Source: an uncultured delta proteobacterium
GTDB lineage: Bacteria > Desulfobacterota > Syntrophobacteria > Syntrophobacterales > Syntrophobacteraceae
Direction: 5' to 3'
Length of the DNA: 64,000 nt
Assembly: GCA_963808625.1 (NCBI GenBank)
Contig: CAWEHK010000041.1
Span: 55,853-119,852 of the forward strand
Shown: positions 9,070-22,865 of the stretch, piece after piece
Layout: each line of letters starts with the position of its first letter
Position numbering within the stretch: position 1 is the first letter of the stretch
Notes under the pieces: generated by a model
What the model saw: only the letters and a program-made list of their open reading frames with translations
The model's database searches: none
What the model was told of the DNA's origin: nothing
Position numbers and translations under genes: made by a program

Positions 9070-11388
9070 TCACAGGCGTTCCCATCGGGTTCCCGTCGTG
9101 GTGTCAAACACCCTGAGTCTGCGCTTTGATAATTCTTCCCTGAGGCGGTCGGCTTCCGCCCATTGTTTTGCCTTCCTCGCATCCTCGCGCCTTTGGATGA
9201 GAGTCGCTTCCTCAGGGGTGCAGAGGCTGGAGCTCCATATCGAAAACACCCATAAGAGCATTCAACTTCTTAAAAACATCCAGAATGTGCTGTCGCTGAG
9301 CCTCGCTAAAGTCTCCCCGATCGAGGATCGGGTTTGTCTGGCGAACAAATTTGAAGAGCGCGGCCAGGGCCGGAGGCATATTCAGATCATCGGCCATGGC
9401 ATCAAGGAAGCTCTGTTCGAGAGCGTAAGTCATCTCCGGGATGACCCGGTTCTCCTGTTCATTGCTTCGGGCATGGTGGACGCGGCTGATGAATTCCTTC
9501 AGGCGTTCGTAGCCGCGTTTGGCATTGAGTATGTTCTCGGAGGTGATATGGATGGGTTTCCGGTAGTGGGTGTTCAGCAGCCAGTAACGGATCTCCATGG
9601 CACTGATACCCGGCGGCAAGGAATTCTCTGACGGAGAGGTTCTCATCGAGATGGCCTTCGTTCCTTCTCCTGCTGTGAAGACCAGATCCGTTCGCAGAGC
9701 ATCCAAACATTGGCAAAGGGCTTCCCGGTTATCGCCTCGCCGATCTCGCGCAGATTTTCCAGGTGGGGGAAGAGGAAGTCCACGCTGCTGACGTGAATGT
9801 CGATGGGCGATCCCAGGTCGTGAATGGCAACCGAGGCGGCAGCGATGTGCCACGTGGGGAGGACGTTTCCCCAGTCCGTTTTCAAAAAGACCCCCTGTTT
9901 GAGCTCGGCTAACGTGGATCGCTTGAGCAGAGTAAAATCCCGTGGATTGAGCTTTTCATAGGCCTCCAGATCCACGGTCTTGCCGAGATGGATTTTCTTG
10001 GGGTCGACCCGGGAAAGGACCCCATAGTTGCTGCTCTTGGAAAGATCGAAGTAAACGGAGCGCAGCTTCTCGTAGGCGAGGCCTTTACTCATCAGAGACC
10101 TGGTGAATTGGATAATGGTATCAATATGTTCCGTGGTCCGGGGACAGGAATAGGTGCGCTGGATCCCAATCTGATCGAGGTCGCTGAAGAAATGCTCCAG
10201 TTGCTGCTGGGCATAGGCAGCGTGTTCCATGCCCGCCGTTCGTGATTCCTGGATGGCGCTGCTGTCGAGATCGGGCGCCAGGATTACCTCGTTTACGGAA
10301 AAGTTCTTCACCCTGAGGAAACGGGTGAGAAGATCGGCCAGCAGAAAGCGACGCAATTCCTGCAATGAAAGAAGCTTGTCCAGGGGAGGGCCGGTCACGA
10401 AAATCCGGACTTTGCCCTCCTGGGCCGGTTTGAAGTCGATCTTTTCCCGCCGCAGCAGATCATAAAAGCGAAAGTCCGGCTCAAGCAGGGTGGTGAAGAG
10501 GTTGGTGCTGAGATAACGATCGCCGCCGTCGGGGAGAATGGCTACGATGATCCCCTCTTCACGTTCCATCGCCAGCTTCACGGCAGCGGCCATGGCCGCC
10601 CCTGAGCTCATCCCGGCAAAGATCCCTTCTTCTCTCGCCAGACGCCGGGCCATCTCGAACGCTTCGTCGTCCTTCACGTTGATGATGCCGTCCAGGGCAT
10701 GGCGGTCAAAGATGCCGGGGACGTAAGATTCCTTCATGTTTTTTAGACCCTGGATCTTGTGTGCCGGGTAAGGTTCGACACCGAACACCTGGATCGCCGG
10801 GTCCCGCTCCTTCATCGCCTCGAGGATGCCCATGGCGGTGCCCGTGGTGCCAAGCGTGACGACCACGGCGTTGACTTTGCCTTCCGTTTGCTCGTAGATC
10901 TCCGGACCGGTCTTCTCGTGATGAGCGGCGGGGTTCGCCGGACTGTTGAACTGGTCGGGCATGAAATAAAGTTCCGGGTTTTCGCGCACCAGGTTGTAGA
11001 CTTCTTCGATGGCGCCGTCCGTACCCTTGCTGCCCGGGGTCAGCAATAATTCCGCACCGAAAGCCTTGAGGATTTTCTGCCGTTCCAGGCTCGCGGTTTC
11101 AGGCATTGCCAGGACGATTCGGTATCCCTTCACCGCCGCAACCATCGCCAGGCCGATGCCGGTATTGCCACTGGTGGCCTCAATGATGACCTTATTGGGC
11201 GTGAGCAATGCCTCTCGTTCCGCTGTCTCGATGAGGGACAGGGCCGGCCGGTCTTTGACGGACCCGCCGGGGTTCTTCGCTTCCCATTTGACGTAAAGGG
11301 TGACTCGCGGATTGGGATTCATGCGATTGATACGAATCAGCGGGGTATTGCCGATGGCTTCCAAAACATTGGAGAAGACGTTTTTCAT
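9070..11388 (-). CDS. Cysteine synthase fused to a degenerate cysteinyl-tRNA-synthetase-like module (frameshifts near 9620-9700 and 9215)
   Basis: N-terminal NPGGSVKDR, EATSGNTG, GTTGT, GMSSGA; C-terminal CysRS-like DFTLLK, WHI, FPH, HYRKP, AMADDLN, ARKAKQWAEADRLR. Confidence 0.9.
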
Positions 11389-14381: not shown

Positions 14382-14461
14382 TTTGACCGTGTAGGAATTT
14401 GCATTCTTTTTTGACCACGAAGGACACGAAGAGCACGAAGAAGATCATATCGGGAATACCA

Positions 14462-15455
14462 TTGAGAAATCGCAATCAGAAGATCGGCTGTGTCGTCACC
14501 GGCGCGGCGGGTTTTGTGGGCAGCCATCTTGCCGAACGACTTCTGTCAGAAGGCTATCATGTTGTTGGGGTGGACAACTTCTTTTCCGGCCGCCGGGAAA
14601 ACCTGACTTCATTATTGGCACATCCTGATTTTTCGTTTCATGAGCGCTCCGTCACCGAGGCCGGCCTGCTGAGGGACCTTAAAGCTCAATACCCCGAACT
14701 TGAGAGCTGTTTCCATCTGGCCGCCATTGTCAGCGTGCCCTACTCGGTGAATCATCCCGAAGTCACCATGGAAGTGAATTGTCAGGCCACCATGAACCTG
14801 CTGCGTGAAGCAGAGCAACTGGACTTCAGGAGTTTTGTCTTTGCCGGGTCTTCGGCGGAGTATGGAGATGAGCAACGATTGCCGCTCAAGGAAGAATATG
14901 CCACAGCAGGCACGAGGCATCTGAGCGCTTATGGTCGTTCAAAATATCTGGCTTCGCGGGAAGTTGCCGCGAGCCGCTGTGGTGTTGCGTTGCGCTGTTT
15001 CAACATTTACGGACCGAGACAGGACCCGACAAGTCCTTACAGTGGCGTGATCTCCCGGTTTGTCACCCTGGCCCTGCGGCAGCAGCCCCTCACCATTTTC
15101 GGAGATGGCCTCCAGACCCGTGATTTCATCTACGTGTCGGATGTGGTGGAAGCTTATCTCTTTGCAGCGAACGTGTGCAGCGAATCACTAAAGGCAGAGA
15201 AGGACGTATACAATATCGGGACGGGCCAAAGCACGACCATTGTGGAACTGGCCAAAGCCATAAATACCTTGGTTGGAGAATCATGCAGAGGTGGCCTTTT
15301 GCCCGGAGCGACCCGGAGATATTCGTTTTTCTGTGGCGTCCGTGGAGGCCTTTGGCAAGGCCGCCGGGTGGGCGCCCCGGGTATCACTCCGCGAGGGGCT
15401 GGGGAAAACCATCGCGTGGGCCGGAGGGTCTCGAAAAGTGGTGCTGCAGCCATAG
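14462..15455 (+). CDS. NAD-dependent epimerase/dehydratase (frameshift near 15280)
   Basis: TGAAGFVGSH, HLAA, YGRSK, FNIYGPRQDP, GDGLQTRDF, ERPGDIR. Confidence 0.9.
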
Positions 15456-15465
15456 CCGGCTGTTG

Positions 15466-16245
15466 TCACCACGTCTTCCGAATCTTAACACCTTGTTCCT
15501 GAAGGAACTCCTTGATCGTCCTGATCGAATAAGTGCCGTAGTGAACCATCGAGGCGATCAAAGCCGCATCGGCGCGCCCTTCCGACAGCACGTCGAAGAG
15601 GTGTTGCGGCTCCCCGGCGCCGCCGGAGGCAATGACCGGGATGCGCACCTGCGATGAAATCAGCCGGGTGAGAATGAGCTCATAACCGTTTTGCGTGCCG
15701 TCCGCATCAATGGAGTTGAGGCAGATTTCGCCGGCCCCGAGCCGTTCCGCTTCCTGTGCCCACCAGAGGGCATCGATCCCCATGGCAGTGCGCCCACCGT
15801 TGATAACCACCTCATATCCCGAAGGGATCTTCACTGATGACGGGACCTGCTTCACATCCATGCCGAGCACGATACATTGACTTCCAAATGCTCTCGCTCC
15901 CTGCCGGATAATTTCCGGATTGAGCACCGCCGCCGAATTGACGCTCACTTTTTCGGCACCCGCAAGCAGGACATCCCGCATGTCTTCAAGGGTGCGAATG
16001 CCGCCACCAACGGAAAATGGGATGAAAATGGTTGCGGCGACCCTTCTCACGACATCCAGCATGATGGGGCGCCGGTCGCTCGATGCCGTGATGTCGTAGA
16101 AGACGATTTCATCGGCGCCTTCCTCGTAATAGTAGCGGCCCATCTCAACCGGATCGCCAATGTCAATATTATCTCTAAACTTGATCCCCTTGGTGGTCCG
16201 TCCATCCCGGACGTCCAGACAGGGGATGATCCGTTTACTCAGCAT
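15466..16245 (-). CDS. hisF: Imidazole glycerol phosphate synthase cyclase subunit
   Basis: [39 protein letters not shown]. Confidence 0.97.
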
Positions 16246-16279
16246 GCGATATCCTTCACTTTTTCAGAATTCTAGATTT

Positions 16280-16350
16280 CACCGCAGAGACGCAAGAGCG
16301 CAGAGAGGATCGGCGGGACGAATCTCTGCGATCTCTGCGTCTCTGCGGTG
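16280..16350. repeat. Palindromic CGCAGAG-subunit repeat between hisH and hisF
   Basis: caccgcagagacgca...tgcgtctctgcggtg; related copy at 48698-48768. Confidence 0.75.
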
Positions 16351-16382
16351 GAAACACAGAACTATAACCCTCACGGATGCTT

Positions 16383-17017
16383 TCAGTCATCAAGCCCATT
16401 CCATTGGCAAAAATTGCGCAGGATCTGCAGTCCCGGGGCCCGCTCTTTTCCGGATGAAACTGGACGGCCACCAGATTGCGACGCGCCACAGCCGAACTGA
16501 AAGTGATTCCGTATTGGGTGATTCCCACGGCACACGCCAAATCACTGGCTTCGGGATAATAGCTATGGACAAAATAGAACTCGCTCCCTCGCGGTAACTC
16601 CCGGAACACCGGATGTTCCCGGGTGAAGACCACCTCGTTCCAGCCCATGTGAGGAATTTTCAGAGGGTCGCCATTTTCATCGCGGAGTTCTTCCGGAAAC
16701 AGCCGCACTTTTCCCGGCAGGATGCCGAGACATTGCGTATCGTTTTCTTCACTGTAGTCAAAAAGCACCTGTAACCCCACGCAAATGCCCAAAACCGGCA
16801 CTCCGGCTTCCAGCCGCTCGCGAAGCAGCGAGTCCAGACCCAGCTCTCGCAGGTCCTGCATGGACTTTCCGGCCGCGCCAACGCCCGGAAAAATGATCCG
16901 TTCCGCAGCCCTGATCCGTTCTGCAGAATGGGTGATTTCGCAGGCAAACCCGAGAAAGCGCAAAGCCCTTTCCACGCTCGTCAGATTGCCGGCCCGATAA
17001 TCCAAAATGGCGATCAC
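16383..17017 (-). CDS. hisH: Imidazole glycerol phosphate synthase glutaminase subunit (frameshift near 16435)
   Basis: DYRAGNL, PGVGA, GICVG, PHMGWN, YFVHSY, QFHPEKS. Confidence 0.95.
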
Positions 17018-20726: not shown

Positions 20727-22006
20727 CTAAGGGATCCTGAGCTTCTGGCCCAGAGTAACGGTATTCGCCTTGAGGTTATTCGCCTCGCGCAGTGTTTGAA
20801 CGCTCACCTTGTATTGTTGAGCGATACTGAAGAGAGTCTCTCCCTTCTTGACCGTGTGGTAGCTGGCAGTAGGAGCTGTTGGAGCAGCGGGCTTTGCCTG
20901 GGGCTTTGGCGGCGCAATCGCGGCGGAGGCTGGCGGCGCTGCTTCCGCAAGCCTCTCTGTTTCGTCCTGACTGCTTGACGCAGGCGGGCTTGGCGCAATC
21001 CTTGACAGGTCAAAATTCTGTTCGAACGTTTTCCCCGTCCCGGCAGGGAACTTCAGTTCATGGGTTCCTGCGGGAACATCGTCCGCCCGAAACTCAGGAT
21101 TGAGCCGCTTGAATTCGCGATAGGTGATTCCCGCCGCCGCGGCAATGCTCTGGATAGCAGCCGGACGGGAAAGGGTTACCCTCACACGATCCAGTTTGAG
21201 CTCGGCGTATCCCGATCCTCTGGGCAAGAAGTATCCGTATTGTGCCGGGATTACCCAAAACAGCCTTGACCGCCAAAATTCTCATGACATAGCGTTCCGT
21301 CTCCTGAGGCAGCCGGAGATGGTAATAGTCGTTGACGCGCTGGGTGCGCATCTCATCGTAAATGCGCCGGTCGCCGCAATTGTAGGCAGCGAGCGCCAGC
21401 GCCCAGTTCTTGTGGCGTGCGTAGAGGTCGCGCAAGCAGGCGAAAGGCGCTCTCCGTTGAGCGTTCAAAATCATACCGGCGATCGCAGGAACCCTGCTGA
21501 TCGAGTCCGTATGCGGCCCCGGTGCTCGGCATAAACTGCCACGGTCCGGCGGCGCCTTTTGGGGAACAGGCATTGGGCTGCAGATCGCTTTCCACGATGG
21601 CGACGTACTTGAGGTCTTCGGGCAGGTTGTAATAGCGCAACCGCTCCTCGATCCAGGGGAAGTACCGCTCCATCCGCTTCAACCAGAGATAAACCTGGGC
21701 GTGGTTATAGACGATCAGGGTAAATTCGCGGTCAAACCGCTCCTGAACATCTTGGACTCAAGCGGCACCGGTTCCCCGCAGAGGTCGATTCTGTCGGGAG
21801 GCGGGTAATAAGGGGCCATACAGCAGGGCACGGATGGGAAGAGGGGCGCCGGAGCCTCTTTCACTGGCGTAGTGGCTGCAGAAGAAGAGGATGGAGGCGC
21901 TGTTGGTGAAGGCGTTTGAGTCGTGGCGCAGCCGAAAAGCGCCCCAACCAGCAACAGGGCAAGCAAAGACAATACAAAATGATCTTGAGTAACCGTCTTG
22001 CTTCAT
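20727..22006 (-). CDS. MltD-like lytic transglycosylase lipoprotein with LysM (several frameshifts)
   Basis: LFGC lipobox, AIVESD, GAAGPWQFM, LALAAYNCG, LPQETERYV, YHTVKKGETL. Confidence 0.88.
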
Positions 22007-22010
22007 GACT

Positions 22011-22441
22011 TCAACTCTCCTCTTGATCGCCGTAAATCTCCAAGTGACTGAATAAAAAAGCGATTTCCCTGTTTGCGAGACCGTGGAATCCGAACCATGG
22101 ACGATATTTTTCGTCAGGTCCCGCGCAAAGTCATGGCGAATGGTGCCGGGCGAGGCCTCGCGGTAATCGGTTGCGCCCATGAGCGCTCGGTTTGTTTGAA
22201 TTACATTCTCCCCCTCGAGCACCATTGCCACAATCGGTCCCGACGACATGAAATCGGTAAGATTTTCATAAAAAGGCTTTCCTTGATGTTCGGCATAAAA
22301 GGAGCGCGCACACTCGTTGGTCAGGCGAAGCATCTTCAAGGCGACAATGCGCATACCGGCATTCTCGAAGCGCCTTATGATTTCACCGACAAGTCCCCGT
22401 GCGACGCCATCAGGCTTAATCATGGACAGGGTTCGTTCCAT
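22011..22441 (-). CDS. ndk: Nucleoside diphosphate kinase (frameshift near 3' end)
   Basis: ERTLSMIKPDG, FYAEH, MSSGP, PGTIR, NIVHGSDS. Confidence 0.95.
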
Positions 22442-22625
22442 CAAAAGTTCTCCTCGCAAAGGTAGCGCCTTTCCAGCGGACGACCACTCCTTTACCTCAG
22501 TAATTCTTGAGTGTCTATTCAAAATCGAAACCTGCTTGACCTTCGAGGGCATCATCAAATCGTTATGCATGGAGAAAAGTCGGCTGCTTGGGGGAAAGGG
22601 CTGGTTTAATTTACTTAGGTTTTTG

Positions 22626-22654
22626 TTGACAAACATTTTAAGGGTTGCTAATTT
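22626..22654 (+). promoter_or_regulatory. Probable sigma70 promoter of acs
   Basis: TTGACA-17 nt-TAATTT with TG extension in an AT-rich intergenic region. Confidence 0.5.
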
Positions 22655-22865
22655 TATTGATTGAAGCGTCGGTTCCATCCTCTCAATCGCCTGCGGCAAC
22701 TCGTATTCCAATCCTCACTGAACAGTAGGATTTCTCTAAAGCTGACGACTGTCAGCTTGGCTCTTCTTTTCATCAGCCTCTCCTTATTCATAGCTCAATC
22801 TTGGCTGGTTCTCCCAGGCGGCGGAATACACACAATTATTCCAATAACTTACCAAGGAGGAAGCT

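Follow-up and report, generated by a model that had tools for sequence, protein, structure and literature searches.

A gene in an uncultured deltaproteobacterium (GenBank assembly GCA_963808625.1, contig CAWEHK010000041.1) encodes a CysM-type cysteine synthase joined to a full-length module resembling cysteinyl-tRNA synthetase (CysRS), read across shifted frames on the minus strand from 11388 to 9070 of the 64,000-nucleotide stretch that we analyzed (the window). An initial annotation took the module for a pseudo-synthetase that binds tRNA-Cys and either regulates cysteine synthesis, channels cysteine, or supports tRNA-linked sulfur chemistry. The locus raises the question of whether this is a decaying gene or a conserved protein and, if the latter, what a synthetase-like module does for a cysteine synthase.

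A CysM-type synthase joined to a CysRS-like module

The fusion ORF begins with an ATG at 11388 and its final piece closes at the stop codon at 9070-9072 (Table 1). As the initial annotation had it, the PLP domain is intact, with its motifs in place and a score of 373 bits on TIGR01136 (cut-off 344), the model for cysteine synthases of the CysK/CysM type. It fell below the cysM equivalog cut-off (363 versus 394), and the Cds1 and CBS models scored far below cysKM. The domain nevertheless has the marks of the CysM subtype, which passages of PMC9547175 define by a large basic residue at E. coli position 210 and the absence of the CysK loop insertion: it matches residues 161 to 259 of E. coli CysM without gaps, carries Lys at R210, and lacks the insertion. 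After the PLP part, PF01406 (CysRS catalytic), DALR_2, and CysS_C follow in this order across the frames; no single NCBIfam model spans the whole fusion.

Table 1. Features of the fusion gene and positions in the window
Feature	Position	Strand	Remarks
Whole cysM::CysRS-like fusion gene	9070..11388	-	Interrupted by three +1 insertions; ~771 aa in uninterrupted homologs
CysM-type PLP sulfhydrylase domain	10495..11388	-	SVKDR lysine (11256), TSGNT loop, DQF, GTTGT, GLKN with Lys (10743) at E. coli CysM R210
CysRS-like Rossmann fold and CP1 insert, site apparently dead	9663..10479	-	C28 to T (10395), HIGH to SLQE (10368), C209 to A (9840), H234 kept (9765), E238 to L (9753); family-specific conserved CP1 residues
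KMSKS-equivalent region between insertions 1 and 2	9606..9662	-	Motif absent
Stem-contact region and helical bundle (HYR, DALR domain)	9221..9605	-	
C-terminal anticodon-binding domain	9070..9220	-	Equivalents of R423, R427, W432, D436, R439, and D451 kept
+1 insertion 1	9659..9667 (~9662)		Probably an assembly error; missing from a 96%-alike contig of run X2
+1 insertion 2	9603..9607 (~9605)		Probably an assembly error; missing from the same X2 contig
+1 insertion 3	9218..9225 (~9220)		Probably an assembly error; no listed X2 contig bridges the site

Residues of the module were numbered as in E. coli CysRS, counted from an alignment. In that enzyme, C28, C209, H234, and E238 are the Zn ligands, and HIGH and KMSKS are the ATP motifs. 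The window reads IFVTGPP at the C28 site, WHIAAA at the C209 site, and FPHLENL around H234 and E238. The loss of both Zn-binding cysteines and of HIGH, claimed initially, thus holds, and since E238 goes along with the two cysteines, three of the four ligands are gone, with H234 the sole survivor. The frameshifts said to obscure the KMSKS region are real, but they do not merely hide the motif; it is truly lost, because uninterrupted close homologs also lack KMSKS there. Judged by these residues, the module in the window appears unable to adenylate cysteine.

On the other hand, R423, R427, W432, D436, R439, D451, and W458 are all preserved, in line with the well-preserved C-terminal region noted at first. 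Among them are all five anticodon-contact residues (R423, R427, D436, R439, and D451); for R427, D436, and R439, this role is given in passages of PMC4536326. A pseudo-synthetase binding tRNA-Cys would fit these residues.

The frameshifts are probably assembly errors

Each of the three +1 insertions was seen against 4/4 aligned close homologs, and the X2 contig (260 bases, with 10 other letters relative to the window) lacks the first two extra bases. A frame change was found at 3 of about 13 places compared with relatives. Elsewhere in the host genome, a MetRS gene is split into two frames (L003, G000:C45, ~20900-22800), a sign of indel errors in the assembly. The tails of an epimerase ORF (14399-15502) and a hisH-like ORF (16256-17017) look out of frame, and the epimerase ORF shows a frame change relative to L014, a locus that also carries a homolog of the fusion. 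We consider it likely that the three insertions are assembly errors, although three insertions per 450 bases are dense and may mark a genuine break in the window's strain. A local pseudogene is ruled out for the family by homologs with complete ORFs and by purifying selection.

The host has a canonical CysRS elsewhere

The loci nearest to the fusion belong to Syntrophobacteraceae genomes. The host genome is 84.6% complete and, as the check for a separate canonical cysS revealed, carries one with all motifs at G000:C29:147207, apart from the fusion. It also has two stand-alone cysK genes and a cysE-like gene below the cut-off, so the fusion is not the host's only cysteine route. A special tRNA partner was set aside on finding a single ordinary tRNA-Cys(GCA) among the host's 39 tRNA genes. 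Rfam gave no match, leader RNA or T-box, in the window between 8000 and 13000, and a promoter and terminator scan stayed at chance level. Among 60 neighbor clusters listed from 78 loci (28 of them Pfam-scanned), none was a conserved operon partner or sulfur carrier.

The fusion is a conserved family without a complete catalytic site

A fusion ORF was recovered from 31 of 32 related loci, as a complete single ORF in 30 and cut by a contig end in one, and a protein search returned, among the 120 matches listed, the window's own fragment and 119 full-length proteins of at least 66% identity. In an even sample of the phylum (201 genomes), with a member defined as a strong match in a frame of more than 600 codons, the fusion was present in 83. 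We followed up 80 of the 82 genomes other than the host, leaving out the incomplete G302 and G308. These 80 come from 53 genera in 34 families. The CysM domain lies in the same frame in every one of them, and 79 also encode a further CysRS that is not fused, although the genomes are related and hence the counts are not independent. The exception is G146 (95% complete, 210 contigs), in which no other cysS was seen. The fusion as the only cysS is thus rejected, both for the host and for this sample. More diverged fusions may have escaped the search.

Several side observations accompany this survey. Desulfovibrio ferrophilus has a degenerate, diverged fusion, and G066 has a close match to the PLP domain in a 367-codon frame (G066:C96:7724-8023), a broken or split member outside the 83. 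In L149 (G085:C33), G027, G060, G092, and G020, the fusion and a canonical cysS lie on one contig, about 3 to 16 kb apart. L165 to L169, from genomes of family f24, encode a third CysRS with an intact Zn site, HLGN/HIGN, KMAKS, and a C-terminal extension of about 260 residues that resembles, by eye, a family 2 glycosyltransferase domain; G123 has a partial match similar to it. The 711-aa P0172, also by eye, joins a CysE-like domain to an intact CysRS, and so likewise unites cysteine synthesis with tRNA charging. The 858-aa P0152 apparently contains two tandem CysRS-like units, the first partial and degenerate.

We compared 110 distinct fusions, an uneven set of which 31 came from a Syntrophobacteria-rich search, with 38 canonical CysRS. 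All four Zn ligands were found in 51/110 fusions, HxG[H/N] in 9/110, and the second KMSKS lysine in 2/110, both without the Zn site, whereas each was present in 38/38 canonical enzymes; the three together occurred in 0/110 fusions versus 38/38. In contrast to this loss, the five anticodon residues were kept in 109/110 fusions (38/38 canonical), the sole miss being the contig-cut L026. Another 76 metagenome ORFs lay away from a locus edge, and 72 of these have the anticodon pattern. Slow ligases may still exist among the members, since in seven fusions all four Zn ligands and HxGN survive and KMSKS is the main difference. The family also conserves seventeen positions that the canonical enzymes do not, most of them within CP1. 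In the PLP domain, S.KDR and the TSGNT/SSGNT loop were present in 110/110 and the phosphate loop in 108/110. The alignment of homologs called for initially thus places the motif loss in the fusions at large rather than in local decay: the fusion is a conserved family. Neither finding that would tell against a pseudo-synthetase turned up, as cysS lies elsewhere and none of the fusions compared has a complete catalytic site.

Descent, selection, and predicted structure

In a tree with the catalytic columns masked, the fused domains formed one clade (support 0.93) in which Zn ligands were lost in several places. With more outgroups, the clade (support 0.97) fell inside a CysRS subtype other than that of the hosts' housekeeping enzyme. 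P0137, from a Nanoarchaeota bin (DPANN), is a 768-aa protein joining a CysM-type synthase to a fully intact CysRS; it falls in the same subtype but is not the family's sister, and it is possibly an independent fusion.

The dead catalytic and helical parts are under purifying selection: among five Syntrophobacteraceae-level homologs, dN/dS was 0.06 to 0.14 for these parts and 0.04 for the PLP domain. For the short anticodon domain the value was 0.33, based on 56 codons, with 6 of 10 pairs usable. The predicted model of the intact homolog L014 (pLDDT 88.8, pTM 0.77) had as its top Foldseek match 1u0b, a CysRS-tRNA complex (TM 0.83 by target), and the ESM Atlas returned CysRS clusters only; on TIGR00435, L014 scored 268 bits against a cut-off of 340.

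The family is uncoupled from CysE

CysE is the step normally inhibited by cysteine. In 40 of the 80 follow-up genomes, including 7 single-contig genomes, the fusion was the only CysK/M-family gene (E<=1e-70), and 39 of these 40 lack cysE, one having it (E<=1e-20; 39/80 genomes overall). Among the 40 genomes with an extra cysK/M, 38 have cysE, in 31 cases within 6 kb of cysK/M. In families f9, f16, and f34, cysK and cysE are gained or lost together while the fusion stays. In five single-contig fusion-only genomes, SerA was found in 5/5 and MetA in 0/5; an alpha/beta hydrolase had no match in two of the five, and G103 has one of 298 codons.

The residues of the PLP domain bear on its substrate. 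All 110 fusions have Lys at CysM R210, and passages of PMC9547175 and PMC5120207 tie a basic residue there to larger or anionic substrates; the latter also describe T. kodakarensis CysK, from a host without serine acetyltransferase, in which Lys is tied to Sep recognition. According to passages of PMC12800425, the TSGNT/SSGNT loop binds the free substrate carboxylate, thiosulfate use is associated with a basic residue at R210, and Phe after the conserved Gln is linked to preference for OAS over O-phosphoserine (OPS), OPS users usually having Tyr. Phe occupies that position in 101/110 fusions, the window's included, and Tyr in 12/12 readable CysM proteins of the split form described below. The family may be a CysE-independent sulfhydrylase, with phosphoserine as the likeliest acceptor, although the Phe speaks against it.

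A split two-gene form and a predicted contact

One clade, represented by 13 metagenome loci, has the CysRS-like part in an ORF of its own, which in 13/13 abuts the CysM gene and starts between 7 bases before and 9 bases after the CysM stop codon. Three of the split loci, L183 to L185, end before the anticodon domain yet keep the Zn-site motifs. This is the reverse of what the window shows, and evidence that not every member of the family reads tRNA. When the PLP dimer was modeled together with residues 302 to 640, the predicted complex scored 0.36, versus 0.00 for the best of three controls, with runs agreeing in at least 75% of contacts and a partner pLDDT of at least 83. Among solved complexes, 116 of 157 attain the mark for such scores, as do 2 of 215 mismatches; with scores of 0.60 or below, the numbers are only 18 of the 157 and both mismatches. 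The prediction thus lends weak support to a contact between the CysRS-like part and the PLP dimer.

A proposed cysteine sensor and its alternatives

Among the three functions first suggested for the module, regulation fits best. Our reading, which we hold at even odds, is that the fusion is a CysE-independent sulfhydrylase, probably using OPS, in which a pseudo-synthetase that senses tRNA-Cys or cysteine makes up for the missing cysteine feedback. The PLP domain would make cysteine without serine acetyltransferase, most likely from O-phosphoserine and sulfide, and bypassing CysE in a sulfide-rich cell would call for another brake. The CysRS-derived module would read tRNA-Cys by its GCA anticodon, and members that keep the Zn site would probably sense cysteine or Cys-tRNA as well. 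The state of tRNA or cysteine would be passed to the PLP domain via the family-specific CP1 surface, with uncharged tRNA-Cys turning synthesis up, or charged tRNA or cysteine turning it down, and the module would stand in for the cysteine feedback normally given by CysE. The CysRS fold would offer two reporting routes, the Zn site and tRNA-Cys, of which each member would keep at least one. The ATP site is given up throughout the family, and the tRNA route alone would remain in the lineage of the window. Here we infer the substrate, the tRNA binding, and the allostery with its sign.

The alternative that survives best, although unlikely, is that the module is a structural or RNA-binding relic that serves folding, oligomerization, or localization of the synthase and carries no cysteine-specific signal. 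The loss pattern, which differs widely between lineages, and the clade that drops the anticodon domain would suit such a relic. However, the residues retained lie on the surface and are base-specific; unlike neighboring positions, they vary no more than in working CysRS, and CysM enzymes fold without such a partner.

Somewhat less likely is that tRNA-Cys is itself the substrate, with the PLP domain altering or swapping the amino acid on an aminoacylated tRNA-Cys that the module holds, as a class I analogue of SepRS/SepCysS or SelA-type chemistry. This would account for CysE independence where cysE is absent; the anticodon residues are invariant, the amino-acid-pocket residues R42, D69, F232, P233, H234, and E236 are kept, and SepCysS exceeded the cut-off in 0/5 genomes tested, the host included. 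Against this, the loop for a free carboxylate is kept in every fusion compared, which also disfavors the tRNA-linked sulfur chemistry of the initial annotation. With a dead ATP site, moreover, the loading of an amino acid other than cysteine would fall to another ligase, and the neighborhood yielded none; 79 of the 80 genomes also retain the canonical CysRS, an enzyme that requires free cysteine.

Ranking just behind is the view that the fused domain is a slow second ligase loading PLP-made cysteine on tRNA-Cys, or that it parks tRNA-Cys for the canonical CysRS. The 51 fusions with all Zn ligands, the seven with HxGN in addition, the intact fusion P0137, and G146 without another cysS speak for it. 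However, the second KMSKS lysine survives in only two fusions, neither of which has the Zn site, and purifying selection acts on the window's lineage even though Zn, HIGH, and KMSKS are gone from it. Nor does P0137 branch as sister to the family, and the three family-mates of G146 have canonical cysS. Such a role is possible for the seven least changed members, but channeling, as initially suggested, is unlikely for the window's member because its Zn and ATP sites are absent.

Least probable is that the module gates some other PLP-domain activity, with the reaction running in a different direction or drawing on a different sulfur donor (S-sulfocysteine from thiosulfate, cysteine breakdown, or selenide discrimination). 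The basic residue at R210, with its link to thiosulfate use, and Phe, which gives no indication of OPS, speak for it. Against it, half of the follow-up genomes have no CysK/M-family gene (E<=1e-70) besides the fusion, and the Cds1 and CBS models score far below cysKM.

Relation to known systems and implications

The proposed sensor has partial counterparts. The HisRS-like domain of GCN2 is a catalytically dead synthetase fold that reads tRNA charging and controls the enzyme attached to it, but GCN2 is a eukaryotic kinase that responds to many tRNAs, whereas the fusion is bacterial, apparently specific for one tRNA by its residues, and attached to a metabolic enzyme. HisZ, which lacks an anticodon domain, is a class II protein for histidine and a separate subunit, whereas the fusion is class I and fused or translationally coupled, with invariant anticodon residues. 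Passages of PMC9437257 describe HisZ as a HisRS paralog without adenylation activity, the regulatory subunit of short HisG, and as mediating feedback. By its sequence, the fusion module is likewise an aaRS paralog with a dead adenylation site, partner of an amino-acid biosynthesis enzyme, but unlike in the HisZ system, the amino-acid site is lost in the window's lineage.

Judged by motifs, domains, and gene content, the fusion is not a member of CysS, CysRS*, or SepRS/SepCysS. It shares the full domain set, the fold, and the anticodon residues with canonical CysRS (CysS; PDB 1U0B, 1LI5), but in the window it has lost three of the four Zn ligands, HIGH, and KMSKS, and it derives from a CysRS subtype other than the host's own. 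CysRS*, with its selC* tRNA in Desulfobacterales of the same phylum, and MshC are CysRS paralogs beside the canonical enzyme (passages of PMC9437257). Each of the two is an active ligase, and CysRS*, which is coupled to selC*/selB*, has no anticodon domain. The fusion shows the reverse, with that domain present and neither an Rfam match between 8000 and 13000 nor a conserved neighbor among those listed. SepRS/SepCysS links cysteine synthesis to tRNA-Cys by an aaRS and a PLP enzyme (passages of PMC5424206), but with an active class II SepRS and a fold-type I PLP enzyme, folds that differ from those of the fusion, and no SepCysS gene accompanies the fusion in the genomes tested. Among CysM/OPS sulfhydrylases (E. 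coli CysM, M. tuberculosis CysM, and T. kodakarensis CysK), none is attached to a synthetase-like module.

Full-text searches of the open-access literature found no description of the fusion; the supplements of aaRS surveys (PMC5388404, PMC8762117) could list such proteins. Nor is it described in passages of PMC8762117, PMC5424206, PMC9855970, PMC9547175, PMC4536326, 10.1101/2025.02.14.638259, PMC2922099, PMC9437257, PMC5388404, PMC5120207, PMC12800425, PMC13759103, and PMC7311316. The fusion is thus real and conserved, and it appears to be an undescribed variant of the regulatory pseudo-synthetase type. Beyond the initial annotation, the analysis brought out the Zn site in nearly half of the members compared, the uncoupling from cysE, and the split two-gene form.

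Many sulfate-reducing and syntrophic bacteria have this fusion, among them the cultured non-pathogens Desulforhabdus amnigena (P0019), Desulfoferrobacter suflitae (P0078), and Desulfovibrio ferrophilus (P0241). It is a protein which databases label "cysteine synthase" or "cysteinyl-tRNA synthetase," an annotation that is here corrected. It points to a cysteine route in 39 sampled sulfur-cycling genomes without cysE, and the family shows the stepwise retirement of an active site while the residues for tRNA recognition stay. Tentatively, and with somewhat less than even confidence, we suggest that the charging state of a cognate tRNA directly and specifically controls a biosynthetic enzyme via a dead synthetase of class I, in effect a T-box made of protein, in an unrecognized CysE-free pathway of sulfur-cycling bacteria, or else that tRNA-Cys joins the chemistry. 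If true, this would be the first cognate-tRNA-reading pseudo-synthetase to control a bacterial metabolic enzyme, combining the ideas of HisZ and GCN2 in one protein.
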